Positions 2,374 through 48,717 of a DNA stretch of 64,000 nucleotides are shown piece by piece (the first letter of the stretch is position 1; every line of letters begins with the position of its first letter). The notes under the pieces are model-generated. The model had not been told where the DNA came from and did no database searches. It saw only the letters and a list, made by a program, of their open reading frames with translations. Source of the DNA: Candidatus Omnitrophota bacterium (lineage in GTDB: Bacteria > Omnitrophota > Gorgyraeia > Tantalellales > Tantalellaceae). The stretch is taken from NCBI GenBank assembly GCA_014728075.1, contig WJMG01000091.1, positions 13,181-77,180 on the forward strand. The letters are read 5' to 3'. Both the position numbers and the translations under genes were made by a program.

Positions 2374-2439
2374 AAACGCGTACTTCCGCGCCGGACTTTC
2401 GCGTGCGCGGACGGGGCGGATGAGTGGAGTGACGATATC

Positions 2440-2832
2440 ATGGACAGGATGAACAGGGTGGCGAAACTTATAATGATGGAAATAAGCGTTCTTCTGCAGA
2501 AAGAAGTTAACGATCCGCGGGTAAGCGCCATTACCATCACCGATATCGAGATAACCAGGGACATGAGGCTCGCGAAGATCTACTATGTACCCGCTGTTTC
2601 GGACGCTAACGAAAAAAAAGAGGTATCCCGCGGCTTGAGAAGCGCTTCGCGTTTTCTGCGGGGTGAACTCGCCAGAAGGATGTCCATGAAATATACGCCG
2701 AAACTGTCTTTCCGGGAGGATATTACCGAGGAAAAACAGAGGACGGTCGATGAGCTTTTCGAGAGGATAGAGAAAGAGCCGGGTTTCAGCGGCGGAGAAG
2801 AACAGAAAGGGGCGCAGGATGAGGACAGATGA
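2440..2832 (+). CDS. rbfA: Ribosome-binding factor A
   Basis: MDRMNRVAKLIMMEISVLLQKEVNDPRV...ITITDIEITRDMRLAKIYY is typical RbfA. Synteny with truB, rpsO and pnp supports it. Confidence 0.9.
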   Translation: MDRMNRVAKLIMMEISVLLQKEVNDPRVSAITITDIEITRDMRLAKIYYVPAVSDANEKKEVSRGLRSASRFLRGELARRMSMKYTPKLSFREDITEEKQRTVDELFERIEKEPGFSGGEEQKGAQDEDR

Positions 2833-3796
2833 CATGAAAAGCGTGGCGCGGGTTATCAGGGAGAACAGGAATTTCCTTATAAGCGCCCATATAAACCCGG
2901 AAGGTGATTCGATAGGAAGTCAGCTGGCGTTGAGCTTCATGCTGGGGGTAATGGATAAGCGGGCCTACATGATAGATCAGGACAGGGTCCCCGATAACCT
3001 TATATTCCTTCCCGGGGCCAAGAATATCCTTACCGAGCCTCCTGCTGATTTCGAGCCTGACGCCGCTTTGATAGTCGACTGTCCTGTCATTGAACGCACC
3101 GGGGATGTGTCCGGGTACCTGAAGAAGGCCGGTCTCATAGTGAACATAGACCATCATGTAAGCAACGAATATTACGGAGATGTCAACTGGGTCGAGGAAG
3201 GGTTCAGCTCGGTCGGTGAAATGATGTTCCACCTCGCGGGGGAGCTCGGTGTCCGCATGGAAAGAGTTCTCGCGGAGAATATTTACGCGGCTATAGTTAC
3301 CGATACGGGCATGTTCAGTTACAACAATACCTCAAGCGATACCCATCGCGTGACGGCGGAGCTGGTCGAGGCCGGAGTAGACCCGAATTTCATGCATGCC
3401 GAGATTTTCGAGAAAAAGGATCTGGCCGAGATAAAGCTTCTCGGAGAAGTGCTGAATTCCCTGGAGATATCAGAGGAAGGTAAGGTCGCTCACATAAAGC
3501 TTACCCGCGGCATGTACTCCAGGGTAGGGGCCGATAAAGTGGCTACTGACGAATTCATAAATTACCCCCGTTCCGTTAAAGGGGTGGAAATAGCTGTTTT
3601 CTTCAAGGAAAGTACCGGTGAGAAAGATAAGGTGTATGTGAGTTTTCGCTCCAACGGAAAGGTTGATGTTAACCGGCTGGCTTCGCTTTTCGGCGGCGGG
3701 GGCCATCAAAAGGCCTCCGGATGCATGCTTGCCTGCGGGATGGAAGAGGCCGTCGGGAAGGTCCTTTCCGAAGCCGAAAAGGTCTTGCAACAATGA
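2819..3796 (+). CDS. DHH/DHHA1 phosphoesterase (NrnA-like oligoribonuclease / pAp phosphatase)
   Basis: The DHH motif region (NIDHHVSN), a DHHA1 domain and the C-terminal GGGGH motif are present. The gene overlaps the rbfA stop. Confidence 0.8.
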   Translation: MRTDDMKSVARVIRENRNFLISAHINPEGDSIGSQLALSFMLGVMDKRAYMIDQDRVPDNLIFLPGAKNILTEPPADFEPDAALIVDCPVIERTGDVSGYLKKAGLIVNIDHHVSNEYYGDVNWVEEGFSSVGEMMFHLAGELGVRMERVLAENIYAAIVTDTGMFSYNNTSSDTHRVTAELVEAGVDPNFMHAEIFEKKDLAEIKLLGEVLNSLEISEEGKVAHIKLTRGMYSRVGADKVATDEFINYPRSVKGVEIAVFFKESTGEKDKVYVSFRSNGKVDVNRLASLFGGGGHQKASGCMLACGMEEAVGKVLSEAEKVLQQ

Positions 3797-14963: not shown

Positions 14964-15149
14964 ATGATAAGTACGGTTATGACTGTCGAGGAACTCGCTA
15001 AATACCTCAAAATGAAAGTGGTTACGATCTATAAGCACGCTCAGGAAGGGAGAATACCGGGTTTTAAGGTAGGGTCCAAATGGCGCTTTAAAAAAGAAAC
15101 CATAGATGAATGGATCAGCCGGCAGGAAAGGCGTACCGGCCAATTTTAA
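14964..15149 (+). CDS. Small excisionase-family (MerR-superfamily, HTH_17) DNA-binding protein
   Basis: 61 aa with MTVEELAKYLKMKVVTIYKHAQEGRIPGFKVGSKWRFKKETIDEWI, which matches the excisionase/XIS HTH pattern. A GGGGTGGGAG RBS lies upstream. Confidence 0.7.
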   Translation: MISTVMTVEELAKYLKMKVVTIYKHAQEGRIPGFKVGSKWRFKKETIDEWISRQERRTGQF

Positions 15150-15162
15150 AGAAAGGATTCCC

Positions 15163-16536
15163 ATGGATTTTAATATCGCAGAAATAGATAATAGGAATAC
15201 TCCTAGAGTTCAATTAAATCTTCCTATTAAAATAAACAACAATAAGGGAGAAACAATAGATTTTAATGAATTAGGAATGGGATTTCGTACGCTAAATAAG
15301 ATTGAAAAAAGGGATTACAATGCAGAAATTAAACTAGATAGTGGGTGCATTGATTTTAATATTGAGATAATTTGGTCAAAGAAGGATAAAAAGTCAAATA
15401 CATACATCCATGGTGCAAAATTTTCAGAAATAAACCCTGTTAAGTTACAAAAAATAAGAAAAAAAGTTATTATCACAAAGTTGAAAAACACTATTAAATC
15501 TTTTTCTCTAAAAGCAGATAAGAAAGACTTAATGAGATTTTCAAAAGAAGTCTTAGCTTATTTGTCTTCCTTATATCATCTCTCAGAAAAACTAGATTCT
15601 GGCAATATGAGAGTTAAAAATGCATCAGAATTTTTAAAGACTAGAACAGACAAGGTGATGGAGGAAGCTAAAATTTTTCAAGATTCGATTAATAATAAAC
15701 TATTGGAGAAAAAAGCCAAAAAAGATTTTCGTGACCTGACGAGTTCTTGGGCCTATAAAGGGTTTATTGTTAAGAGATCTTTTGATAAGCCTCGAGGGTA
15801 TCCAGGTGATTTTAGGATAATGGAATATATTTATGACGAGATTTTAATATCAAAAGGGATTGGCCAGTGTTTTGATGTGTATTTCCAGAATAATGAATAT
15901 GCAGAAGCTGTTAGGAAAAGAAAAGACTGGATGAGGAGATATTTGGAAAATTTCATATCGGAAAAAAATAAGAAAAACATAAATATTTTAAATATAGCTT
16001 GTGGATCAAATCGAGAAATCAGAGAACTTTTGCATAATAAACCTTATGTTTATACACATCTTTCTGAAAAAGGAAAGAAAGTGATTTTGAATTTATTAGA
16101 TCAAGATAATGAAGCATTAGCCTTTTCTAACTTAAATCTAAAGTCTTTTAATCGTTTCGTTGACATAAGATTGCTTGATAATGATATTATGGATTTAACA
16201 AAAGAAAATGAAGTTCAAATTAATCAAAGCATGGATTTGATTTATACAATTGGATTGGCAGATTATTTACCAGACAGAATCTTGGGAAAGTTGCTCAATA
16301 GATGTGTGGATAATTTTTTAAAAAAAGATGGGAAGTTAGTTATTGCTCATAAAGATATTTCTCGTTATAGACCTATGCCTCCAAACTGGTTTTGTGATTG
16401 GAATTTTTATTCAAGAAATAAAGATGATTTAAATAATCTACTAAAAAAACATGTTGGATTTGATACTGTTGATGTTCAGTATTACAGAGATGATACTGGA
16501 ATTATTATTTTCGCAGAGTTGACAAAAATAAAATGA
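15163..16536 (+). CDS. PilZ-domain :: class I SAM-dependent methyltransferase fusion protein (putative c-di-GMP-responsive methyltransferase)
   Basis: The N-terminus has RNTPR (RxxxR) followed 19 aa later by DFNELG (D-x-N-x-x-G, a variant of PilZ DxSxxG). The C-terminus has methyltransferase motif I (ILNIACGSNREI), an acidic beta2 (LNLLDQDNE) and post I/III motifs (IRLLDNDIMDL; MDLIYTIGLADYL). ATG 15163 has a GAAAGGA RBS. The gene is markedly AT-rich. Confidence 0.6.
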   Translation: MDFNIAEIDNRNTPRVQLNLPIKINNNKGETIDFNELGMGFRTLNKIEKRDYNAEIKLDSGCIDFNIEIIWSKKDKKSNTYIHGAKFSEINPVKLQKIRKKVIITKLKNTIKSFSLKADKKDLMRFSKEVLAYLSSLYHLSEKLDSGNMRVKNASEFLKTRTDKVMEEAKIFQDSINNKLLEKKAKKDFRDLTSSWAYKGFIVKRSFDKPRGYPGDFRIMEYIYDEILISKGIGQCFDVYFQNNEYAEAVRKRKDWMRRYLENFISEKNKKNINILNIACGSNREIRELLHNKPYVYTHLSEKGKKVILNLLDQDNEALAFSNLNLKSFNRFVDIRLLDNDIMDLTKENEVQINQSMDLIYTIGLADYLPDRILGKLLNRCVDNFLKKDGKLVIAHKDISRYRPMPPNWFCDWNFYSRNKDDLNNLLKKHVGFDTVDVQYYRDDTGIIIFAELTKIK

Positions 16537-18692
16537 ATTTTCTAGCCTTTACTGGATTAATTAACTTTATTACCTGTATCGCTTTAGGTCTTTTTGTTCT
16601 TTTGAAAGGATTTAAGTCTCGCCAAAATATCACATACTTTTTTTTAAATGTAAGTGTTGCTGTTTTTAGCTTGGGGTATTTTCTCTGGCAAATAACATCC
16701 GATCTTTCAGCTGTTCAATGGTTTAAGTTATTAGTGGTAGGTATTATTTTAATTAATCAAGCATATCTTATTTTTGTGTTTACTTTTTTAAATATAATTA
16801 AACGCCATAAAGTACCATTGACCATATGTTTTGCATTGAACTTATTTTATATCTTTGCAAATTACAAAGGATGGTTGTACCAAGATTTTCTAAATAAATT
16901 CGAATTAGGTATTTGGCCGATTCCAACAAATTTATTTGTGTCATATCTTATTTTTTGGGTTGTTCAATGTGTTTATGGGTTTATTTATTTATTTATTAAT
17001 GCAAATAAAGGCTCAACGAGAAGAAGATTGCAAATAAGGTATTTCACAATAGCGGCAGTTGTTGGATTTCTGGGAGGCGCGACTAATTGGCCTATTTGGT
17101 TCAATATATATTTTCCTCCGTACGGTAATATCTTAATAAGTTTATATATCGCAATTGTTGCTTATGCAATTGTTAGGCATCAATTGATGGATATTAGCGT
17201 AATTGTAAAGAAAACGATAGTTTTTGCCGGTTTGTTTATAGCTTCGTACGCGGTTTTTGCAAGTTTTGCTTATATCGGTCTAGGCGTTATAGAAAACTTT
17301 ACTAAAAATAGATGGATAGCAATGCTGCCTTCGGTATTTGTTGTAGTTGTTATGTTGCGGCCGTTAGAGAGTTTTTTGAGGAATGTTACCGATAAATTCC
17401 TCTTTCAAAAAAAATACGATTATAAGACATTGCTCAAGACCTTTGCCGACGATGTCCTGATGGTCCTTGACATGAACGAACTTGTCAACCTTACCGTTAA
17501 TAAATTAACCGAGATCGTAAAGCTGGAGAACGCCACGATCTTGCTGAGCTCGGGGGAAGACGGCGATTTTAGCATAGTGGCCAGTTCCGGAATGGAGGAC
17601 CCCGAATATGAAATAACTTCAGGTTCCGGGATAAGCGATCTGCTTATGACAAAACCCGATTATCTTCTTTTTGAGGACTCCTCCGATACCGATAACTATG
17701 ACAATGAAGTCAGGCGTGCTATGAAAGACCTTCAGGCCCGGCTTCTTATCCCGCTTGTCCACAGGAACCAGGTAGTGGGGCTGCTTACCCTTGGAAAGAA
17801 GAAGTCTGATGAGGAATTCAGCCAGGACGACATCGATATCCTTCTTCCCATATCAAGGACGCTTTCCATAGCCATCGCCAACGCCAGGCTGTTCGAGCAG
17901 CTATCCGAAGCCCAGGCACAGGCGGCGCAGAGGGAGAAAATGGCCGTTATAGGCACGCTTTCGGCCGGGATCAATCACGAGATCTGCAATCCCCTGGGTA
18001 TCGCCAGGGGGCAGTGCGAGATGTTCCTTCTTAACCTTAAAGAGGGCCTTTACGACGCTAAAGACCCCGAAGAGCTTCTTTTGAAAGCCCGGGAGATAAT
18101 GGAGAAGGTCATAACCGAAACCGACCGGGCGACCGTTATTACACGCAAGCTTTCCTCCTTCGCCAAACCGGCAAAGGGGAACCTCCGGGAAGGCGTAGTC
18201 GTGGCCGAGGAACTGAGAGAGGTGATTTCGCTTCTCGAGCATGATCTCAGGCTGGATAATATAGAGATCGTAGAGGATTTCGGCGGCGATGTCCCGCCGA
18301 TAGTCGCCGACAAAAAACAGCTTCAGGAGATATTTTTCAACCTGATAAGGAACGCGGCCCAGTCGATCAAGGCGGAGGGCGCGATAATACTGCGGACCCG
18401 GTCTGACAGGGGCAGGGTTTCTGTCGAGATAGAGGATACGGGAGAGGGAATAAGTGAAAGCAACCTTAAGCGCATATTCGATCCGTTCTTCACGACAAAA
18501 GACCCGGGTAAAGGCACCGGTCTCGGGCTTTTTATCGTCAAGCAGATCGTTGAGAGGAACAACGGCCGAATATCGGTTGCCAGCGAATCCGGGAAGGGGA
18601 CCGTGTTCTCGGTCGTATTCGGTTCCGTTAAGGGCGCAGGCCTTTTTGCCGGCGGAGAGGACGGCGGGAAAAGAAAGGTAGCGGTTAAATGA
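16533..18692 (+). CDS. Sensor histidine kinase with N-terminal 7TM sensor module, GAF domain, HisKA and HATPase_c
   Basis: About 230 aa of polytopic N-terminus paralogous to the HK at 20828-22432. A GAF-like middle domain. The H-box INHEICNPLGI and the G-boxes DTGEGI...GTGLGL are present. The gene overlaps the upstream stop (ATGA). Confidence 0.85.
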   Translation: MNFLAFTGLINFITCIALGLFVLLKGFKSRQNITYFFLNVSVAVFSLGYFLWQITSDLSAVQWFKLLVVGIILINQAYLIFVFTFLNIIKRHKVPLTICFALNLFYIFANYKGWLYQDFLNKFELGIWPIPTNLFVSYLIFWVVQCVYGFIYLFINANKGSTRRRLQIRYFTIAAVVGFLGGATNWPIWFNIYFPPYGNILISLYIAIVAYAIVRHQLMDISVIVKKTIVFAGLFIASYAVFASFAYIGLGVIENFTKNRWIAMLPSVFVVVVMLRPLESFLRNVTDKFLFQKKYDYKTLLKTFADDVLMVLDMNELVNLTVNKLTEIVKLENATILLSSGEDGDFSIVASSGMEDPEYEITSGSGISDLLMTKPDYLLFEDSSDTDNYDNEVRRAMKDLQARLLIPLVHRNQVVGLLTLGKKKSDEEFSQDDIDILLPISRTLSIAIANARLFEQLSEAQAQAAQREKMAVIGTLSAGINHEICNPLGIARGQCEMFLLNLKEGLYDAKDPEELLLKAREIMEKVITETDRATVITRKLSSFAKPAKGNLREGVVVAEELREVISLLEHDLRLDNIEIVEDFGGDVPPIVADKKQLQEIFFNLIRNAAQSIKAEGAIILRTRSDRGRVSVEIEDTGEGISESNLKRIFDPFFTTKDPGKGTGLGLFIVKQIVERNNGRISVASESGKGTVFSVVFGSVKGAGLFAGGEDGGKRKVAVK

Positions 18693-40706: not shown

Positions 40707-41585
40707 ATGTTCTCATCCAGGGTCGTGACCGCGATCGCGGGTATTTTTCTTTTGATCCTTTCCGGGTTTCTGGTCTTTAATCATTTTTCGACACGGTCAC
40801 CGGATGAAGGCACAGAACGGTCCGTTCGGTCCGAAAAGAGCTTTGACGAAGAGACCCGGGGTGAACTTGTGATCGTGCTCGACGATTGCGGATACTCAAC
40901 AAGGAACCTCCGGGCTTTGCTTGACCTGGAAGTCCCGGTTACTCTGGCTGTGCTGCCCGATACGCCGTATGCCTCCCATGTCGCCCGTTCGGCTTCTGGC
41001 CGGGGTAAAGAGGTCATAGTACATATGCCCATGGAACCTTTAGACGGGTCCGCGGCCCTGGAAAAAAGTACCGTTAAGTTAGGCATGCGCCCGGAAGAGA
41101 TAAGAAAGATGTTTTCCGACGCTGTAGCGGCTGTTCCCGGAGCGGCCGGGGTTAATAACCATATGGGGTCTAAACTTACCGCCGATCCTTATTCCATGGA
41201 GATACTTTTCGAGGAAATAGGGAAAAGAGATCTTTTTTTTCTGGACAGCCTTACTACCGCCGGATCCGTTTGTTCCGAGATAGGAAACGCTAAGGGCGTG
41301 ACGGTACTGAAAAGGGATATATTCATTGACAATGTGAATGATGAAGACCATATCAAGGGACAGATGGAAAAGATAAGGTCTATTCTTGATGAAGGCGGGA
41401 CCGTACTGGCTATAGGGCATGACAGGCCCGTTACCGTAAGGGTTATTTCCGAATATGTGGACGAGTTCAAGAGTATGGGGGTAAAGTTCACTACGCTCTC
41501 GGCACTTGCCGGAAAAAGGACCGGGCCTTTCGAAGGTTCCGGAAATACAGTGGAGGCTATGTCCCCACCGCGCGAAAGGGACTGA
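40707..41585 (+). CDS. Divergent polysaccharide deacetylase family protein (YibQ-like)
   Basis: An N-terminal TM segment and the motifs VIVLDDCGYS...VNNHMGS...AIGHDRP of the divergent polysaccharide deacetylase (PF04748-like) family. Confidence 0.7.
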   Translation: MFSSRVVTAIAGIFLLILSGFLVFNHFSTRSPDEGTERSVRSEKSFDEETRGELVIVLDDCGYSTRNLRALLDLEVPVTLAVLPDTPYASHVARSASGRGKEVIVHMPMEPLDGSAALEKSTVKLGMRPEEIRKMFSDAVAAVPGAAGVNNHMGSKLTADPYSMEILFEEIGKRDLFFLDSLTTAGSVCSEIGNAKGVTVLKRDIFIDNVNDEDHIKGQMEKIRSILDEGGTVLAIGHDRPVTVRVISEYVDEFKSMGVKFTTLSALAGKRTGPFEGSGNTVEAMSPPRERD

Positions 41586-41590
41586 TTCTT

Positions 41591-42604
41591 ATGATAACCG
41601 TAGGTATAGAGACTTCCTGTGACGAGACGGCGGCGGCTGTCGTCTCCGACGGGAAAGTGCTCTCCAGCGAGGTTTCCTCCAGCGTAGATCTCCATTCTTC
41701 CTACGGAGGGGTCGTTCCCGAGATAGCTTCACGCTTTCACTCGGAATATATACTGCAGGTTTTCAGAAAAGCCCTGGATAAAGCGGATATTGGTGCCGGG
41801 GATATAGACCTCGTTTCTGTTACGCAGGGGCCGGGTCTTCCCGGTTCTCTTCTTGTGGGCATATCCTTCGCCAAGGCGCTGAGTTACTCTTCCGGCGCCG
41901 AAATACTGGGGATCGATCATGTGCACGCGCATTTGTTCTCGGGTTTTACGGATGGGATGCCCCCGGAAGACGAACCTTTTACCGGTATGGTAGTTTCGGG
42001 GGGGCATACCAGTCTTTTTTTGTGCCGATCGGTCGAAGATATCCGGGAAACAGGAAGGACCAGGGACGATGCCGTGGGTGAAGCTTACGATAAAGTAGCC
42101 AAGATACTCGGCCTCGGATACCCCGGAGGACCGGTCGTTGAGAGGATGGCCGGGAAAAGTGACGGAAAAGACAGGATAGGGTTTCCCAGGCCCCTTTTGG
42201 GCCGGGACAGCGGACTGGATTTCAGCTTCAGCGGCATCAAAACGGCTGTTCTTTATTACTGGAGAGATTGCCCCCGGAGCGAGAAGGACCTGATCGATAT
42301 CTGCTTTTCTTTTCAAGAGGCGGTATTGGATGTTATAATAGAAAAACTGAAAAGGGCCGTCAGATCTTCGGGCACAGGGAACATCGTTATAGGCGGGGGA
42401 GTGGTGAACAACGGTCCGCTGAGGAGAAAGCTCAGGGCTTTTTGCGAGGCTGAAGGAATAAACCTTTTTATGCCCGATAAGCAATATTGTACCGATAACG
42501 CGGCGATGGTAGCCCTTCTCGGAGAAAGGCTTTACAGGAAAGGCGAAAGGAGCGACCTTGCGATAAACGCCGAACCTTCCGGGTTGACCGGAGGAAGGAG
42601 ATGA
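41591..42604 (+). CDS. tsaD: tRNA N6-adenosine threonylcarbamoyltransferase
   Basis: MITVGIETSCDETAAAVV...GGVVPE...GLGYPGG are Kae1/TsaD motifs. Confidence 0.9.
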   Translation: MITVGIETSCDETAAAVVSDGKVLSSEVSSSVDLHSSYGGVVPEIASRFHSEYILQVFRKALDKADIGAGDIDLVSVTQGPGLPGSLLVGISFAKALSYSSGAEILGIDHVHAHLFSGFTDGMPPEDEPFTGMVVSGGHTSLFLCRSVEDIRETGRTRDDAVGEAYDKVAKILGLGYPGGPVVERMAGKSDGKDRIGFPRPLLGRDSGLDFSFSGIKTAVLYYWRDCPRSEKDLIDICFSFQEAVLDVIIEKLKRAVRSSGTGNIVIGGGVVNNGPLRRKLRAFCEAEGINLFMPDKQYCTDNAAMVALLGERLYRKGERSDLAINAEPSGLTGGRR

Positions 42605-42605
42605 T

Positions 42606-43259
42606 ATGGAGACCGGCGTAATGGTCATTCGGATACTGCTGGCTACGGTGCTCGGTGCAATAGTCGGCTTTGAAAGAGAGGTCAACGGCTGCGCGGCCGG
42701 ACTCCGGACCCATATACTGGTCTGTCTCGGTTCGGCGGTTTTTATGGTGGCTTCCGTGGTGGTGGCGCCCATGTACGGACATCTGGGAGCGGTCGATCCT
42801 TCACGAATAGCCGCAAACATCGTTACGGGTGTAGGTTTTCTGGGCGCCGGAGCTATAATCCGCTACGGCGCATCTATCAGAGGATTGACGACCGCGGCAA
42901 GCATCTGGGCCGTAGCCGCCGTAGGACTCGTGGCGGGCGCCGGCATGTATATAGCCGCTGTTCTCAGTACGGTCCTGATAGTATGTACACTTTTTCTTTC
43001 CAAGCTGGAGGAGAGAATGGAGCTCAAGCGGGGCGGCAAGAAACTCATTATCCGGCTTTCCTCCGAAGAGGCTGTAGACGCTCAGGATGTACATAAAATA
43101 ATATCAGCTTACGGAGGCAGCGTCCGGAAAGTCGAAAAAGACAGGAACCAGGATGAATACCTTCTTATAGTCGATCTTATGCTTTCAAGGCTTTATCGCA
43201 AGGATGTAGTTTCCGAGCTTCTGAACCTCTCCGGTGTTCACGAAGTGGAATGGAAATGA
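42606..43259 (+). CDS. MgtC/SapB family membrane protein
   Basis: ILLATVLGAIVGFEREVNGCAAGLRTHILVCLGSAVFMV is the MgtC signature. A C-terminal ACT-like soluble domain is present. Confidence 0.8.
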   Translation: METGVMVIRILLATVLGAIVGFEREVNGCAAGLRTHILVCLGSAVFMVASVVVAPMYGHLGAVDPSRIAANIVTGVGFLGAGAIIRYGASIRGLTTAASIWAVAAVGLVAGAGMYIAAVLSTVLIVCTLFLSKLEERMELKRGGKKLIIRLSSEEAVDAQDVHKIISAYGGSVRKVEKDRNQDEYLLIVDLMLSRLYRKDVVSELLNLSGVHEVEWK

Positions 43260-43299
43260 GCGGATTTTTGTCGTTTACCGAAATAAAAAGGAGGTCGTG

Positions 43300-43857
43300 A
43301 TGAGACGGAAAAAACAACATAAAGAAGAGGCGCTTCCGAAACAGGAAGAGAAGGTCCTGGATGTTAACGCCAGCATGCAGGGGACATTAAGGTTTGATGA
43401 TCCCGTTAATTTGAGGATAAGCGGGAAGTTCGAGGGCACGCTCGATACAAAAGGGCGTCTCATGGTAGGGAAAAAAGCCGATATCTCGGCGGATATAACC
43501 GGTGAAAGCATTTCTATAGCCGGTAATGTAAAAGGCAACATAAAAGCTTTCGGCGTACTTTCTTTAGAGTCGACCGCGGTTCTTGAGGGTGATGTCGAGG
43601 CTGCCAGTCTTTCCGTTGAAGAAGGCGCTGTAATAAACGGAAATCTCAGGATGACGGGGTCCGGATCCTCCGCGCCTTCCGGGCGGGGAGACTGGATGAC
43701 CATCTCGCAGCTGGCAAAATACCTTGAGGTCGAGTCCGCGAAAGTGACCGAATGGGCTGATGGCGGCATGCTCCCCGGCACAAGGGAAGGAGGAGAGTGG
43801 GTCTTCGAAAAGAACAAAGTGGACCAGTGGATAGCTGACGGAAAGGTCAAGGCTTGA
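43300..43857 (+). CDS. Bactofilin-domain protein fused to a C-terminal excisionase-type HTH DNA-binding domain
   Basis: Bactofilin (DUF583) beta-helix repeats are present (ISGKFEGTLDT...ISADITGESISIAGNVKGNIKAF...LEGDVEAASLSVEEGAVINGNLRM). A C-terminal MTISQLAKYLEVESAKVTEWADGGMLPG...GEWVFEKNKVDQWI HTH_17 follows. An AAGGAGG RBS lies before ATG 43300. Confidence 0.7.
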   Translation: MRRKKQHKEEALPKQEEKVLDVNASMQGTLRFDDPVNLRISGKFEGTLDTKGRLMVGKKADISADITGESISIAGNVKGNIKAFGVLSLESTAVLEGDVEAASLSVEEGAVINGNLRMTGSGSSAPSGRGDWMTISQLAKYLEVESAKVTEWADGGMLPGTREGGEWVFEKNKVDQWIADGKVKA

Positions 43858-43858
43858 T

Positions 43859-44224
43859 ATGCCCGAAAAACTTTTGACACTGGATGAACTTTCGGAATAC
43901 CTCCAGATAAAGAAGAAGACGCTCAACCGCCTGGTGGACAAAGGTGTCATTTCTGCGTACCGGATAGGCGGTGAGCTTCTCCGGTTCAGAAAAGAACAGA
44001 TAGACGCTATAAAGTCCGAGATAGATTCACGAATTGCCGAAAAGGACAGGTTGCTCAGGGAGGAGGGCGATAACCGCACGGGAGCCGAGCGTTTGCGGCA
44101 GATGCGCCGTAAGGGAAACGAATCGTTGAGGGATAAGGTCAGTGATTTCCTTTACTTCAACGATTTTTACATACTCTCGGCATGTATAATAGCTGTTCTG
44201 CTGGTGGTAATATTCCGCAGATGA
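43859..44224 (+). CDS. Excisionase-family HTH protein with C-terminal transmembrane anchor
   Basis: LLTLDELSEYLQIKKKTLNRLVDKGVISAYRIGGELLRFRKEQIDAI is an HTH_17. A C-terminal hydrophobic segment (FYILSACIIAVLLVVIF) follows. It starts 2 nt after the bactofilin-HTH stop. Confidence 0.6.
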   Translation: MPEKLLTLDELSEYLQIKKKTLNRLVDKGVISAYRIGGELLRFRKEQIDAIKSEIDSRIAEKDRLLREEGDNRTGAERLRQMRRKGNESLRDKVSDFLYFNDFYILSACIIAVLLVVIFRR

Positions 44225-44305
44225 GAAGACGGTCCGCGAAGCCCGCTTTCTTCATCGCATTCGCGCTGAAAGCAGCGAGTTGAACTTCAGAAAGATGATT
44301 TGCGA

Positions 44306-45265
44306 ATGAATATCTTTAAAGCCGTATGGGGATCCCTGTTTTTCCTTGCCGTCCTTACCGGGTCCTGTTACGGCGATACCGTTATACTCAAAAACGGCAA
44401 AAGGGTCAAAGGTCTTGTCCTGGAAAGGTTCAAGGACAGAGTGGTCGTTTCCACCTTCGAGGGTGAAAGAACGATAAAAAAATCCGCAATACGCTCGGTG
44501 ATCTACGATACAGACGAAAAAGCTCTTCTCCAGGACGCTAGGAACCTTTTCGTAAGGGGCAACTATGTTGATTCCTTTTACGCTTACGAGAAGGTGCTGA
44601 GCATAGACCCGGCCCATAGCGAAGCCAGGTTAAGATACGATTACCTTAAAGGTTTCCTTGAAGGAAGCGTGCGCGAAGATATCCGGAAGGATGTGGAGTT
44701 GAAACAGGAGGCGGTTACCGGAGGCTCCGGCGGTGATCCCTTGATGAAAGTCCGTGATGACCTGGGGGTCTCTATAGGGACGGCCGGCCAGAAGACCGTT
44801 GTGACCGAAGTGGTTGATGATTCTCCCGCGGCCCGTTCCGGGCTCAAAGAAGGGGATACGATAGTAGCTGTCTGGGGAGAGTTGACGGATTATCGTTCGG
44901 TGGAAGAAGTCGCGGAGATGATGAGCTCTCCGGGAGAAGTGCGCCTTTTGATAGCCCGTGTATACGAGCCGCTTCTCTCCGGTTCCGTATCCATTTTCGA
45001 CGGTATTTTGTTCAGCAGGTACGGCAGGACAATAGGAGGCGCCCTCAGTCTTGAAAAAGAAGGTGTTGTTGTTTCCGGGGTGCGGAAGAACGGCCCGTTT
45101 TCGAGAGCGGGGATAAGGAAAGGCGACAGGCTGACCGAGATCGACGGCGTTGATATTACATATATGCCGATGTCATCTTTGATAAGCAGGCTGCGCAGAT
45201 CGAGAGGAGAGCGTTTGCCGATCACCGTATTCAGGGATATAACGATATGGAGCAGGGAGAAATGA
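44306..45265 (+). CDS. Secreted/periplasmic protein with two PDZ domains
   Basis: A signal peptide (MNIFKAVWGSLFFLAVLTGSCYG) and two PDZ-like segments (GVSIGTAGQKTVVTEVVDDSPAARSGLKEGDTIVAV; VVVSGVRKNGPFSRAGIRKGDRLTEIDGV). Confidence 0.6.
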   Translation: MNIFKAVWGSLFFLAVLTGSCYGDTVILKNGKRVKGLVLERFKDRVVVSTFEGERTIKKSAIRSVIYDTDEKALLQDARNLFVRGNYVDSFYAYEKVLSIDPAHSEARLRYDYLKGFLEGSVREDIRKDVELKQEAVTGGSGGDPLMKVRDDLGVSIGTAGQKTVVTEVVDDSPAARSGLKEGDTIVAVWGELTDYRSVEEVAEMMSSPGEVRLLIARVYEPLLSGSVSIFDGILFSRYGRTIGGALSLEKEGVVVSGVRKNGPFSRAGIRKGDRLTEIDGVDITYMPMSSLISRLRRSRGERLPITVFRDITIWSREK

Positions 45266-45266
45266 T

Positions 45267-45815
45267 ATGGGGGGCATGAGAAGAAGGACGACATTGTTCA
45301 TCGCGAGGCGTTTTCAGATCAGGTACATAACCCTTATCCTTCTTATGATGTTCGCCGTGGTCGGTGTTACCGGTTATACCGTCTATGTCACGACCTGGAT
45401 AATGTTCGGAGAGAAATTAGCGGCGGTTTATCCTCAGGGCCTGCTTCTTGATATCGTAAAACAGGTAAATGCGGTGCTCGTCATGCGTCTGCTGTTCCTG
45501 GTCCCGCTCGTGCTTTTCGTGGGCCTTGTTCTTTCCAACCGTATAGCAGGACCCATTTATCGGATCAAGAGATATCTTTCCAAAGTAGCGGGCGGAGCTT
45601 ATTCCGGGCAGTTGAAGCTGAGGCATAAAGATGAATTGCAGGATCTGGCGGAAGTGATAAACCAGCTTGCCGACAAGCTGGATTCGGACCGTAAAAGCAG
45701 AATGGAAAAGATCGGTCATATGGATAAGGTGATCGAGAAACTCGACCGCGGGGAGATCCCTCCCGCTGAAGCGGCAGATGTCCTCAGGAGTCAGCTGAAG
45801 ACTTTCCGGGAATGA
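45267..45815 (+). CDS. Membrane protein with two TM segments and a HAMP domain, without any output domain
   Basis: Two TM helices followed by RIAGPIYRIKRYLSKVAGGAYSGQLKLRHKDELQDLAEVINQLADKL (HAMP consensus P...G...DE.) and a short coiled tail. Confidence 0.4.
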   Translation: MGGMRRRTTLFIARRFQIRYITLILLMMFAVVGVTGYTVYVTTWIMFGEKLAAVYPQGLLLDIVKQVNAVLVMRLLFLVPLVLFVGLVLSNRIAGPIYRIKRYLSKVAGGAYSGQLKLRHKDELQDLAEVINQLADKLDSDRKSRMEKIGHMDKVIEKLDRGEIPPAEAADVLRSQLKTFRE

Positions 45816-45909
45816 CTTTTCGTCTTCGCTGCAGCCGGTCTTCCTTCAGGGCGGGGGCGTTCCCCGGCAGCTCCCTGTTCTCGTCCGGGGATTTATAAAG
45901 CCCGTGAAC

Positions 45910-45938
45910 TTGACAAACCGGGGATATTTATATAATAT
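45910..45938 (+). promoter_or_regulatory. Candidate sigma70-type promoter upstream of polA (TTGACA-N15-TATAAT)
   Basis: TTGACA lies at 45910-45915 and TATAAT at 45931-45936, about 140 nt upstream of the polA start. Confidence 0.3.
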
Positions 45939-46077
45939 AATTATGCTGACAACGATATGGACTGCTCGTGAACTCCTTTCGCATTAACCCAGACAAACAG
46001 TAATCCGGAAACCGGCACATACCGTATTTCTTTTTACCGACCCCTGAAAAAATAAACCCTCATTAACATACCCCTCA

Positions 46078-48717
46078 ATGACCGAAAAACAAGAACAGAT
46101 ATACCTTATTGACGGTAATTCGCTCTGTTACCGGGCTTATTACGCCATCAAAGAGCTTGCGACTTCGAAGGGCAGGCCGACGAACGCCATTTACGGTTTT
46201 ATCAACATACTGGAAAAGATAAAACGGGAATACGGACCGGAAATGATGGTTGTCGCTTTCGATACTCCCGCTCCTACTGAAAGGCACAAAAGGTACGAGG
46301 AATATAAGATACACCGTAAGCCTATGCCGGATGACCTTGTTGAGCAAATGCCGGAGATCAAAAAAGTGATAAAGGCATTCGGTATACCCGTTCTGGAGAA
46401 GGATGGGTACGAAGCGGACGATATTATCGCAACGGTGGCCGAGCGCGCCAGGGATCAGGGGAAAAGCGTGGTGATAGTGAGCGGGGATAAAGACGCCTTA
46501 CAGCTTGTCGGAGAAAAGGTTAAGGTGCTGAGCCCTTCAACCTCCGCGTACAATCTTTACGGACCGGATGAAGTCAAGGAAAAATTCGGCGTGGAACCCG
46601 GAAAAATGGTCGAGCTTATGGCGCTGATGGGTGACGCCAGCGATAATGTTCCGGGGGTAAAAGGAGTGGGTAAGGTCACCGCTGCCAGGCTCATAGACCG
46701 ATATCGGACGGTTGAGGGGCTTTACGGCCACCTTGAGGAGCTTTCAGCTTCTCTTAAACAAAAGCTTTCCGATTCCAGGGAAGATGCCGAATTGAGCAGG
46801 GAGCTGGTAACGCTTGACAGGCAGGTCCCTGTAGACCTGGAGCTTTCCGAAGCGGCCGTACGGGAACCGGATACAGAGACCCTGATCCAACTTTACAAGG
46901 AATACGAGTTCAATAAGCTCCTGAAAGAGATAGCGCCCCGCGCAAGCAAGAAGGTGAACTACGAGATCTGCGACGCGGATAGGCTCAAAGCGTTCGCGGC
47001 GGGCTCCCGCGGGGGTAATGGCTTCGCTTTCTTTCCGGTCATAGACGATACTTCGGGCCGCCTTTCGGGCCTGGCTTTATCGGCGGCGGAAGGTTCGGCT
47101 ATCTTCGTGCCGACCGAGCTTGTTTCCGGGGGGGGTGATCTGGCTCGCCTGATGCGGAGCGATAAGGTCACCAAGGTCTGTTTTGACCTTAAGGCGCAAT
47201 TACGGCTTTTCCGACGGTCCGGCATCTCTATCGGCGGCCCTTTTTTCGATGTCATGCTCGCGGATTACCTGATCGACCCTTCAAGGCCGAAATACGAGCC
47301 CGATGATATGGCTATCCGTTACCTTGACCGCATTCTTTCCTCCGGAAAGAAGGATGTGAACTGGGACACCCAGGGGCAGGGCATGATGGACCTTTCGGAA
47401 GGGCCCGGCGACATCGAATATTTTTGCGAACGCGCGGATCTTTTCTTTACGCTGCGTCCCCGGCTGGAAGATGAACTCAGGGATAAGACGCTGATCCAAC
47501 TGTTCGAGACCGTGGAAATGCCCCTCGCGGAGATCCTGGCCGACATGGAAGATGAGGGGGTCACGGTGGACCTGGATTTCCTTTCCAGAGCTTCATCCGA
47601 AATGGGTGACCGCCTGGAAAAAGTGACGGCCGAAATATACGGTATAGCCGGAGAGGAATTCAATATTAATTCCCCGAAACAGCTGCAGGTAATACTTTAC
47701 GAAAAACTGGGTCTCCCGGCCCTGAAAAAGACAAAAACCGGTATTTCCACAGATGAATCCGTGCTTAAAAGGCTTGCCCGTAACCACGGGCTTCCCGAAA
47801 AGCTTCTGGAATACCGGGAGTTGAATAAGCTTAAAACGGCTTATTACGATTCCATCCGCAAACAGGCCGACCCTTCGGGAAAGATCCACGCTCTTTTCAA
47901 TCAGGCCGTAACCGCTACGGGAAGGCTTTCTTCCAGTGAACCCAACCTGCAGAACATTCCCGTGAAAACGCCGATGGGCCAGGAGATCCGTAAAGCTTTT
48001 ATTCCTTCATCGGGCGGCCGTTTACTGCTGGCCAGTGATTATTCCCAGGTTGAGTTAAGGGTTCTGGCCCATCTTTCGGGGGACAGAAATCTCATAAAAG
48101 CATTCGAAAGATCTGAGGATGTCCACAAGTATACCGCTTCACTTATATTTGACAGCTCCCTTGAGGAAGTTACTCCGGAAATGCGTTCAGTAGCTAAAAC
48201 GGTCAATTTCGGGATCGTATACGGGATAAGCGCGTTCGGGCTCTCGAAAGATCTGAACATCAGGATAGACGAGGCGCAGGGTTTCATAGACGCCTATTTC
48301 GAGAGATATTCCGGGATACGGGAATTCATAGAACGGACCGTATCCGAGGCGTGCGGGAACGGTTATGTCACGACTATCCTGGGCAGGCGGAGGTATATCC
48401 CGGAGATAAACAGTTCCAACGACAGGATAAAGGGATTTGCCGAGCGGGCGGCTGTCAATACCCCGGTCCAGGGATCGGCCGCCGACCTGATCAAGCTCGC
48501 TATGATAGAGTGCGGCAAAGAATTCCGGGACAGCGATGTGAAGATGATCCTGCAGGTTCACGATGAGCTTGTTTTTGATGTGCCCGGGAACAGGCTCAAA
48601 AAGGCGGCCGCAAAAGTAAAAAAAATGATGGAAAGCGTTTTTGACCTGAAGGTCCCCCTGGTCGCGGATGTGGAATACGGGCCCAACTGGCTGGAAATGG
48701 AACCGATGGACTTTTGA
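46078..48717 (+). CDS. polA: DNA polymerase I
   Basis: 879 aa with a 5'-3' exonuclease domain, a 3'-5' exonuclease-like domain and polymerase motifs A, B and C (DYSQVELR; RRYIPE...KGFAERAAVNTPVQGSAADL; QVHDELVF). Confidence 0.95.
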   Translation: MTEKQEQIYLIDGNSLCYRAYYAIKELATSKGRPTNAIYGFINILEKIKREYGPEMMVVAFDTPAPTERHKRYEEYKIHRKPMPDDLVEQMPEIKKVIKAFGIPVLEKDGYEADDIIATVAERARDQGKSVVIVSGDKDALQLVGEKVKVLSPSTSAYNLYGPDEVKEKFGVEPGKMVELMALMGDASDNVPGVKGVGKVTAARLIDRYRTVEGLYGHLEELSASLKQKLSDSREDAELSRELVTLDRQVPVDLELSEAAVREPDTETLIQLYKEYEFNKLLKEIAPRASKKVNYEICDADRLKAFAAGSRGGNGFAFFPVIDDTSGRLSGLALSAAEGSAIFVPTELVSGGGDLARLMRSDKVTKVCFDLKAQLRLFRRSGISIGGPFFDVMLADYLIDPSRPKYEPDDMAIRYLDRILSSGKKDVNWDTQGQGMMDLSEGPGDIEYFCERADLFFTLRPRLEDELRDKTLIQLFETVEMPLAEILADMEDEGVTVDLDFLSRASSEMGDRLEKVTAEIYGIAGEEFNINSPKQLQVILYEKLGLPALKKTKTGISTDESVLKRLARNHGLPEKLLEYRELNKLKTAYYDSIRKQADPSGKIHALFNQAVTATGRLSSSEPNLQNIPVKTPMGQEIRKAFIPSSGGRLLLASDYSQVELRVLAHLSGDRNLIKAFERSEDVHKYTASLIFDSSLEEVTPEMRSVAKTVNFGIVYGISAFGLSKDLNIRIDEAQGFIDAYFERYSGIREFIERTVSEACGNGYVTTILGRRRYIPEINSSNDRIKGFAERAAVNTPVQGSAADLIKLAMIECGKEFRDSDVKMILQVHDELVFDVPGNRLKKAAAKVKKMMESVFDLKVPLVADVEYGPNWLEMEPMDF

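Follow-up and report, generated by a model that had tools for sequence, protein, structure and literature searches.

In a 64,000-nucleotide stretch of DNA from a Candidatus Omnitrophota bacterium (contig WJMG01000091.1; hereafter 'the window'), we identified two adjacent genes, here called A and B, whose products combine a cytoskeletal polymer fold with a fold typical of DNA-binding proteins. A encodes a bactofilin fused to a C-terminal winged helix-turn-helix (wHTH) domain, and B encodes a second wHTH protein that ends in a transmembrane helix. Our analyses show that A-B is an uncharacterised core gene pair, conserved phylum-wide in Omnitrophota – a phylum of ultra-small, mostly uncultivated bacteria. 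Studied bactofilins have short disordered tails and recruit their clients non-covalently. Here, a folded domain of a nucleic-acid-binding type is fused to the bactofilin polymer, is fixed across the phylum, and is co-encoded with a paralogous domain on a tail-anchored protein (43 of 44 loci).

The first-pass annotation of this DNA had called such a fusion unusual relative to the bactofilins studied so far, and the literature agrees: full-text searches brought up neither a description of a bactofilin-HTH fusion nor a paper that mentions bactofilins and Omnitrophota together. Database labels for A and B proteins are generic only. What is new here is a conserved subfamily of bactofilins in which a wHTH is fused to the polymer protein and a tail-anchored wHTH protein is an obligate partner.

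Domain architecture and predicted folds of A and B

Gene A (43300–43857 including the stop codon, forward strand; open reading frame (ORF) list and sequence) encodes 185 amino acids and matches the Pfam families PF04519 and PF12728. The bactofilin profile PF04519 matches residues 19–116 (E=3.3e-24, 85.4 bits against a cutoff of 27.9, 96 of 98 profile positions). In an AlphaFold2 model built from 71 homologues, with a mean predicted local distance difference test (pLDDT) score of 80, residues 20–118 form a β-helix with pLDDT above 90. Pfam, AlphaFold2 and Foldseek together place the bactofilin core at residues 19–118 (43354–43653), and the peptide LEGDVEAASLSVEEGAVINGNLRM occupies residues 95–118. 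The bactofilin domain of the first-pass annotation therefore stands, with limits of approximately residues 19–118 in place of the 30–135 originally given. A basic, disordered N-terminal tail precedes the core (residues 1–18, 43300–43353, beginning MRRKKQHKEE; pLDDT below 50 at residues 1–16), and a flexible Gly/Ser-rich linker follows it (residues 119–131, 43654–43692; pLDDT below 50 at residues 121–129). Across the family this linker varies in length and sequence, and it is almost absent in a clade distant from that of the window.

The remainder of A is a wHTH of the MerR/Xis type (residues 132–180, 43693–43839). HTH_17 (PF12728) matches the same residues (E=4.2e-8, 33.8 bits against a cutoff of 27), the peptide MTISQLAKYLEV begins at residue 133, and the AlphaFold2 model gives residues 132–179 a β-α-α-β-β-α winged topology with pLDDT of ~80. 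The C-terminal HTH_17 domain reported at first pass, including the peptides quoted for it, is thus present. The NCBIfam family TIGR01764 ('excise') also passes its cutoff (33.0 bits, cutoff 28.8).

Foldseek searches against the PDB matched the two halves of A separately. The core resembles BacA (2N3D; TMt 0.84, root-mean-square deviation (rmsd) 1.7 Å) and TtBac (6RIB/6RIA), in keeping with the right-handed β-helix of about six windings that typifies bactofilins, and the C-terminal domain resembles BldC (6AMK/6AMA; rmsd 1.2–1.4 Å, 28% identity), with further matches to the small-terminase (TerS) N-domain, RacA, Pukovnik Xis, MerR-family regulators and CbpM. A single-sequence search of the PDB with the A HTH returned chance matches only and a profile search was needed; the profile gave RacA as its best match (E=0.0021) and also found Pukovnik Xis and BldC.

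Mutation of F105 in TtBac blocks polymerisation. I112 of A aligns with this residue (F130 in BacA), which belongs to the C-terminal polymerisation interface, and the position is Val, Ile, Leu or Phe throughout the A family alignment – a correspondence that rests on sequence conservation only. In BacA the canonical membrane-targeting sequence (MTS) is MFSKQAKS, within which F2, K4 and K7 are critical (PMC12448750). The tail of window A contains no Phe and departs from the M-F-x-K/R..K pattern; tails in the near clade, to which the window belongs, read MRKKK and have no hydrophobic residue, and tails in the distant clade (MAFKKK or MALRRK) resemble the canonical sequence. An MTS is typical of the bactofilin family but does not strictly define it, and in the features that sequence and predicted fold can address A reads as a bactofilin.

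Gene B (43859–44224 including the stop codon, forward strand; ORF list and Pfam) encodes 121 amino acids. Its wHTH (residues 5–51, 43871–44011) matches HTH_17 (E=1.3e-10, 41.8 bits) and TIGR01764 (E=6.5e-12, 45.6 bits). In the AlphaFold2 model (pLDDT 69), a wHTH at residues 5–50 is followed by disorder at residues 67–88, a helix at 90–100 and a confident helix at 102–120 (pLDDT 81–93). The wHTH finds its best Foldseek matches in BldC (rmsd 1.6–1.7 Å), RacA and Xis, and the conserved wing of the B family is GGELLRFRKEQIDA. By profile and predicted fold, the domains of both A and B appear to be genuine HTH_17 domains in all respects except their DNA-contact residues, which are discussed below. 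A charged linker (residues 52–95, 44012–44143; pLDDT below 50 at residues 67–88) leads from the wHTH towards the membrane; in the B family it varies in length and sequence, with a mean net charge of +2.1.

B ends in the C-terminal transmembrane helix that had been annotated from the sequence (approximately residues 100–119, 44156–44215). The Kyte-Doolittle mean over its hydrophobic terminal stretch, FNDFYILSACIIAVLLVVI, is 2.35 (19-residue maximum), with only three residues beyond that stretch; AlphaFold2 models a helix here, and RR alone lies beyond the helix limits given above. The C-terminal 19–20 residues are strongly hydrophobic with 0–3 residues after them, and Kyte-Doolittle maxima range from 1.9 to 3.0 in the 14 homologues listed. 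Because of this hydrophobic C-terminal end, B is predicted to be tail-anchored, with all else of the protein cytoplasmic. A juxtamembrane aromatic motif, DFLYFNDFYI (residues 96–105, 44144–44173), has the transmembrane helix directly after it. The motif is almost invariant (consensus DF(L/F)YFNDFYI): over 75 sequences, D96, F100 and F103 are invariant and F97, Y99, D102, Y104 and I105 are conserved in at least 90%.

A single nucleotide (43858) separates the TGA of A from the ATG of B, and the two genes lie in different reading frames. The gap is likewise 1 nucleotide in 26 of 43 related loci. A Shine-Dalgarno sequence read from the DNA (AAGGAGG, 43288–43294, forward strand) ends 5 nucleotides before the ATG of A and suggests strong translation; a similar (A)AGGAGG sequence stands equally far from A in almost every one of the 43 related loci listed, and TATAAT-like boxes lie just upstream of A in several. 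The strong Shine-Dalgarno sequence and these boxes would suit an abundant structural protein. By eye, the 75 nucleotides upstream of A in the window and 43 loci have no operator-like motif in common, the Shine-Dalgarno sequence alone being shared. A promoter and terminator scan of 41400–46200 gave counts not above shuffled expectation and was uninformative on operon structure.

The fusion and its partner are conserved across Omnitrophota

A homologue search over 5.8 billion proteins retrieved 780 clusters homologous to A and 629 homologous to B. The best 120 of the 780 A clusters derive from NCBI, JGI, ENA and Logan assemblies; all carry both Pfam domains, with lengths of 178–207 amino acids and identities of 59–81%. 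Wherever a taxon is named, A clusters belong to Candidatus Omnitrophota/Omnitrophica, and the same is true of every B cluster with a source name. One protein from an NCBI metagenome-assembled genome (MAG), P0001, is 100% identical to window A. We also made an exhaustive HMMER scan of 1.84 billion representatives at 50% identity, which yielded 11,465 bactofilin matches. About two dozen of the best 150 clusters cover the query nearly full-length, and with so few full-length matches the architecture of A is therefore lineage-restricted.

We then turned to genomic loci, sampling GTDB contigs at one genome per species. In this sample 44 loci match A over nearly its whole length, including the HTH, and all 44 lie in Omnitrophota MAGs; the 26 other loci returned come from other phyla and show little or no match beyond the bactofilin core. 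The first-pass annotation had recognised that the fusion could be a frameshift artefact and had raised the matter of how widespread it is. Recurrence of the same architecture across independent assemblies and 44 species loci excludes a frameshift or assembly artefact, and the fusion is not a one-off.

Several of these MAGs, from 'binchicken' co-assemblies, are titled 'uncultured Planctomycetia/Planctomycetales bacterium' (L002–L005, L007, L008, L010, L024, L031, L040, L042 and L044). They have the full Omnitrophota-type synteny and A proteins 41–70% identical, and the organism names given by NCBI are probably placeholders that do not reflect their true taxonomy. A 311-amino-acid protein from a 1085 bp JGI contig (P0343) joins an unrelated N-terminal region to the last bactofilin turns and the HTH; we set it aside as most likely a chimera of gene calling or assembly, not a third architecture.

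Among the genes of the block, A shows the highest conservation in the 27 closer loci, with a mean identity of 64.7% (tsaD 59.0%, mgtC 56.1%, polA 54.0%, B 53.7%). A and tsaD are about equally conserved (47.5% and 48.8%) in the 17 distant loci. The A-B pair is under strong purifying selection.

A-B resides in a housekeeping gene neighborhood

Gene coordinates confirm the tight linkage to tsaD and mgtC noted at first pass: tsaD (41591–42604; Pfam and ORF list) is followed by the MgtC-family gene mgtC (42606–43259), which lies directly upstream of A. Downstream of B, on the forward strand, are genes encoding a secreted-looking protein with two PDZ domains (44300–45265) and, 1 nucleotide later, a small HAMP-only membrane protein with two transmembrane segments (45267–45815), after which comes polA (46078–48717). 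The order ctp (S41 protease), YibQ-like deacetylase, tsaD, mgtC, A, B, (PDZ, HAMP), polA is kept across the 44 loci. B lies directly 3' of A in 43 of them, and the remaining contig ends before B. The PDZ and HAMP genes are found between B and polA in only about half of the syntenic loci; the N-terminal region of the PDZ protein shows a weak similarity to the Leptospira 'Lepto_7_Nterm' domain (35.9 bits, cutoff 43). Housekeeping genes that run in one direction make up the wider window, among them a SurA-like gene, pdxA, gatA, gatB, coaE, rho, prfA, prmC and murA.

Two loci place the pair elsewhere. L072, from a MAG labelled 'PVC group bacterium', runs from dnaE through a gene for a response-regulator/HATPase_c (two-component) protein, A and B to a gene for a chorismate-binding enzyme; in L076, A and B precede AIRC and GDSL lipase genes. 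The B-like proteins of both retain the HTH, the aromatic motif (DFWKYSDIYI in L072, DFFYFNSFYI in L076) and the terminal transmembrane helix. Because A and B stay together despite wholly different flanks, the pair is a functional unit in its own right and does not simply reflect linkage to tsaD-mgtC. In two settings a DNA polymerase gene lies near A-B – in the core synteny it is polA, on the downstream side, and in L072 it is dnaE (1–3351), two genes upstream – which may be a coincidence.

We found no integrase, phage gene or mobile element within ~10 kb of A-B. Members of the excisionase, or recombination directionality factor, class sit on a mobile element beside an integrase; A and B have housekeeping flanks and a synteny kept in 44 species. 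With no integrase nearby, the label 'excisionase-type' that the first-pass annotation attached to the HTH therefore describes the fold, for which TIGR01764 passes its cutoff, and not the function. Neither protein belongs to the BldC family NF033787 (A 17.3 bits, B 19.6 bits, cutoff 77).

DNA-contact residues are replaced in A and partly retained in window B

Net charge was judged too blunt an indicator of DNA binding (RacA segment, hand count), and we used residue-level mapping, aligning 33 A-HTH and 32 B-HTH domains with BldC. In BldC-DNA structures, Lys26 and Arg30 read bases, Thr27, Thr29, Lys33 and Trp31 contact phosphates, and His46, Arg47 and Arg48 occupy the minor groove. Either of the substitutions R30A and H46E is enough to abolish binding, and RacA uses the Arg equivalent to BldC Arg30 (PMC5859096).

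The A equivalents of Arg22, Arg30 and Arg50 are E143 (Glu or Asp in 33 of 33 domains), E151 (Glu or Asp in 30 of 33, Gln or Asn in 3, never basic) and E170 (Glu or Asp in 33 of 33). Lys26 corresponds to A147, at a variable position, and Thr27 to K148 (Lys in 20 of 33). In place of the His46/Arg47/Arg48 wing, A has W167, a gap and V168 (Val or Ile in this clade), so that the window wing reads E166-W167-V168; Arg or Lys occupies the last position only in the distant clade. Profile alignments likewise set the conserved Glu/Asp position of A opposite the Arg of RacA and BldC. The basic contact set of BldC (K26, R30, H46, R47, R48) is thus missing from A and partly present in window B. L142, V144 and W152 of A are the conserved counterparts of F21, V23 and W31, the hydrophobic 'head' residues of the BldC oligomer interface.

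In B, the residue equivalent to Arg22 is Q16 (mostly Gly in the family), and those equivalent to Lys26, Thr27 and Arg30 are K20, T21 and R24, each variable across the family. The wing reads L40, L41, R42 at the His46/Arg47/Arg48 positions; R42 is invariant, R44 (equivalent to Arg50) is Arg or Lys in 26 of 32 domains, and R44 and K45 are mostly basic. Window B therefore keeps the equivalents of K26, T27, R30, R48 and R50, and recognition helices are fully basic in the distant B partners of L072 and L076. Because B retains canonical contact residues, it appears to be the better candidate for DNA contact in this genome.

An internal control is provided by a free-standing 61-amino-acid HTH_17 protein encoded in the window at 14964–15149 (forward strand), which scores 63 bits in Pfam against the 34 bits of A, has a net charge of +4, a Lys at the Arg30 position and the wing KWRFKK. 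The 3' end of the control gene overlaps the start of a 476-amino-acid ORF (15106–16536) that has a sub-threshold PilZ match only, and a large membrane histidine-kinase-like ORF follows at 16533–18692.

More distant bactofilin-HTH fusions keep basic recognition helices (MVRKWAREG in P0402, DPKTLNQWAQKGK in P0405). The acidic pattern of A is therefore derived, and conserved in the core Omnitrophota family; judging from these helices, the ancestral fusion was probably DNA-binding. The residue pattern suggests that the C-terminal domain of A, although a true wHTH, is unlikely to bind DNA in the canonical way. The first-pass proposal that the bactofilin binds DNA through its own HTH is thus right as to the domain and weakened as to its activity, the contact positions being acidic or hydrophobic.

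A candidate membrane-attached scaffold

We tentatively favor a composite model in which A forms a membrane-attached bactofilin scaffold and B serves as its anchor and likely DNA contact. Within this model, A and B would together form a conserved cytoskeletal module of two translationally coupled genes, restricted to Omnitrophota and related lineages of the PVC group, a reading that we hold with the same reserve. We infer polymerisation of A, its contact with B, DNA binding by B and a cellular role as follows. A would polymerise through its bactofilin β-helix and, with one monomeric wHTH per subunit on a ~13-residue tether, the filament would become a multivalent wHTH array. B would be inserted in the cytoplasmic membrane by its C-terminal tail anchor, its wHTH facing the cytoplasm on a ~45-residue charged linker, and would act as the membrane receptor or anchor of the A filament. 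Anchoring by B would compensate for the Phe that the MTS lacks in the near clade; B is plausible as an anchor because near-clade A proteins are without this Phe. In Caulobacter, a membrane-bound client can replace the bactofilin MTS (PMC12448750).

The wHTH of B would touch DNA in this genome. By clustering B and its wHTH units, the A filament could convert weak monomeric contacts into a strong membrane-proximal chromosome tether. The wHTH of A, because of the acidic residues at its canonical DNA-contact positions, more probably docks on protein – it may bind a basic surface such as the wing or linker of B – or, alternatively, it may bind DNA non-canonically. Head-to-tail assembly of the BldC/Xis type and the binding of CbpA by MerR-like CbpM offer precedents, by analogy, for a wHTH as a docking domain. 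Extended to cell biology, the composite model would have Omnitrophota organise or segregate their chromosome by a bactofilin filament bearing a wHTH array, with a tail-anchored wHTH partner linking DNA to the membrane – a possibility about which we are more doubtful.

Several observations weigh against the composite model. The acidic substitutions in A argue against direct DNA binding by the filament. Recognition helices of most near-clade B proteins read SEEKIxSLVD, with Ser, Asp, Glu, Arg, Lys or Gln at the position equivalent to Arg30; with a helix so variable and acidic, DNA binding by B is not assured family-wide. Both wHTHs are slightly acidic (mean net charge −1.25 for A and −1.05 for B over 44 pairs). 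The wings of A and B co-vary, in that the near-clade proteins A and B both have GGE and the distant-clade proteins have both lost it, but this co-variation cannot be separated from shared phylogeny and the clade split. The A-B block contains no par, smc or nucleoid genes; its neighbors are envelope and housekeeping genes, and this context does not point specifically to chromosome biology.

Alternative explanations

The bactofilin polymer could itself bind DNA through its C-terminal HTH_17 domain, with B as a second, independent membrane-DNA tether. The nearest relatives of the A wHTH – BldC, RacA, Xis and the TerS N-domain – are DNA-binding architectural proteins, the backbone-contacting and structural positions have been retained (K148 without exception in the near clade, together with T150 and W152), and the distant fusions P0402 and P0405 have basic recognition helices. 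Weak binding could be offset by the multivalency of a polymer, and a recognition-helix glutamate can read cytosine in some regulators. Yet the residue equivalent to Arg30 is never basic, those equivalent to Arg22 and Arg50 are acidic in every domain aligned, the basic wing is gone, the domain is net negative, and the canonical HTH_17 of the same genome scores far above A. We regard this explanation as unlikely. Equally unlikely, in our estimate, is that neither wHTH binds DNA and that B is the receptor of a protein-only scaffold for envelope growth, division or cell shape, the functions that most studied bactofilins serve. Such an adaptor would account for the tendency of both domains to be acidic and for the charge reversal at the contact residues of A, and protein-binding MerR-like folds (CbpM-CbpA, 3UCS; DafA, 9DVI) are among the structural matches. 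The conserved neighbors of A-B include envelope-related genes for an S41 Ctp protease, a YibQ-like deacetylase and the PDZ and HAMP proteins, and integral membrane clients recur for bactofilins and can replace the MTS (PMC12448750; PMC13649987). However, the A-B block contains no M23 peptidase, penicillin-binding protein or other known bactofilin client, and the PDZ and HAMP genes are missing from about half of the loci. The basic residues of the B wing, foremost the invariant R42, also speak against a purely protein-binding role, as do the fully canonical basic recognition helices of B in the window, L072 and L076.

A regulatory switch is improbable. In Bacillus subtilis, BacE/F bind the HTH protein BacR (YhbD, DUF4004), encoded by the adjacent gene, near its HTH and hold it at the membrane, where it loses DNA binding (PMC13649987); the adjacency of A and B resembles yhbD-bacEF, and one of the two HTH domains could by this logic be a transcription factor, perhaps autoregulatory, whose access to DNA is set by sequestration on the polymer or membrane. 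But B is permanently membrane-anchored and has no sensor domain, the A HTH is covalently part of the polymer, and release would require proteolysis. Nor did inspection of the upstream regions reveal a shared operator, and the strong Shine-Dalgarno sequence and housekeeping-level conservation suit a structural protein. Neither A nor B has a Pfam match at E≤0.1 to DUF4004, which joins an N-terminal HTH to a C-terminal domain of ~150 amino acids; after its HTH, B consists of linker and transmembrane helix only. Still less credible – to the point that we give it almost no weight – is that the fusion is false, or that these HTH_17 proteins are excisionases or MAD1 components of a MADS defense system. 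The name of TIGR01764 and weak MAD1 matches (~40 bits to NF047737, cutoff 80; 28 bits to PADLOC mad1) would favor it, but the MAD1 score is far below its cutoff, no other MADS genes are present, the architecture recurs in many independent assemblies with a core synteny over 44 species, and A-B is surrounded by gatA/gatB, ctp, tsaD, polA, coaE, rho, prfA and murA. Without an integrase or phage gene within ~10 kb, a prophage, an excisionase of an integrative and conjugative element and a defense system were rejected.

Relationship to characterized systems

A close conceptual parallel to the proposed function of A-B is the BacNOP-PadC-ParB/ParA system of Myxococcus xanthus, in which a bactofilin polymer linked to DNA-associated proteins positions chromosomal regions and the adaptor gene adjoins the bactofilin genes (PMC5703909). 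Myxococcus bactofilins have short unstructured tails and use a separate ParB-like adaptor, PadC, whereas the Omnitrophota A protein carries its wHTH covalently and is partnered by a tail-anchored wHTH membrane protein, with no protein of the ParB fold. The RacA-DivIVA system of Bacillus subtilis (PDB 5I44) is similar in concept, as it tethers a MerR-like wHTH to a membrane-associated scaffold, and RacA is both the best PDB match of the A wHTH profile and a structural match for A and B. RacA differs in being a coiled-coil dimer with a base-reading Arg (Glu or Asp in A) and no transmembrane partner, and DivIVA is a separate coiled-coil scaffold. A has no coiled coil and is not a RacA-type protein; the resemblance is functional only.

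The folds closest to A and B are those of BldC, lambda-type and Pukovnik Xis, and RdfS – monomeric MerR-like wHTHs that assemble head-to-tail on DNA (PMC5859096, PMC11963761). These share with A and B the absence of the MerR dimerisation coiled coil (rmsd 1.2–1.7 Å, 26–28% identity), but they are small free-standing proteins tethered to neither a polymer nor a membrane, and A lacks equivalents of the essential Arg30 and His46. The BacE/BacF-BacR system also has an HTH-protein gene adjoining bactofilin genes. BacR, however, is dimeric and soluble, a DUF4004 regulator that alternates between the membrane and the nucleoid, while in Omnitrophota the bactofilin itself carries one HTH and a permanent anchor holds the other at the membrane. 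For the proposed role of B, a parallel is found in BacA-PbpC of Caulobacter crescentus, where a bitopic client binds the bactofilin via its cytoplasmic segment and can replace the MTS (PMC12448750). PbpC, a cell-wall synthase, differs from B in its large periplasmic domain; B bears a wHTH and has next to nothing outside the cytoplasm and membrane.

Other bactofilin-HTH fusions in Omnitrophota

We observed a second lineage of fusions, of the Omnitrophica WOR_2 type, that has the same architecture, is ~30% identical to window A, begins with a canonical MTS-like N-terminus (MKFFSQKKR) and lacks a B (HTH_TM) partner. In three loci (L071 1–6567, L079 866–4317, L080 869–4321) the fusion comes last in a conserved cassette, after a ParA/MipZ/CbiA-type ATPase that carries a C-terminal AMPK1_CBM domain and then two unknown proteins of ~217–270 amino acids. 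Upstream of the cassette in L071 are a Volactin-family actin-like gene (E=2e-91) and a gene for a MamF/MmsF-family membrane protein. This may be a cargo-positioning or segregation cassette, and the link to a ParA/MipZ-type ATPase fits, without proving, a positioning or segregation role for bactofilin-HTH fusions. In two other loci (L077 5939–6142 and 7687–7754; L078 5911–6114), a fusion gene of the WOR_2 lineage is followed by genes for a histidine kinase, a sigma-54 activator and response regulators; ~5 kb downstream in both is a GvpA-family gas-vesicle gene, accompanied in L077 by an AAA+ ATPase gene (AAA_5/AAA_3).

The P0402 fusion (38% identical; L074 5001–5558, L075 4832–5389), which has the recognition helix MVRKWAREG, also lacks an HTH_TM partner. 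Genes for a phage-type integrase and DUF1016 and STAS proteins lie upstream of it and a gene for a 598-amino-acid protein with weak AMIN and PilZ matches lies downstream, a different and possibly mobile context.

Implications

If the chromosomal interpretation is true, A-B would be a one-operon, bactofilin-built equivalent of RacA-DivIVA or ParB-PopZ, and the second Omnitrophota lineage, whose fusion is encoded near a ParA/MipZ-type ATPase, would follow a variant of that design. Should A-B tether DNA, it would represent a new and simple solution to chromosome anchoring. Should the acidic wHTH instead be a protein adaptor, a DNA-binding fold would have been repurposed as a cytoskeletal docking module. 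Either outcome would provide a testable entry into the cell biology of Omnitrophota.

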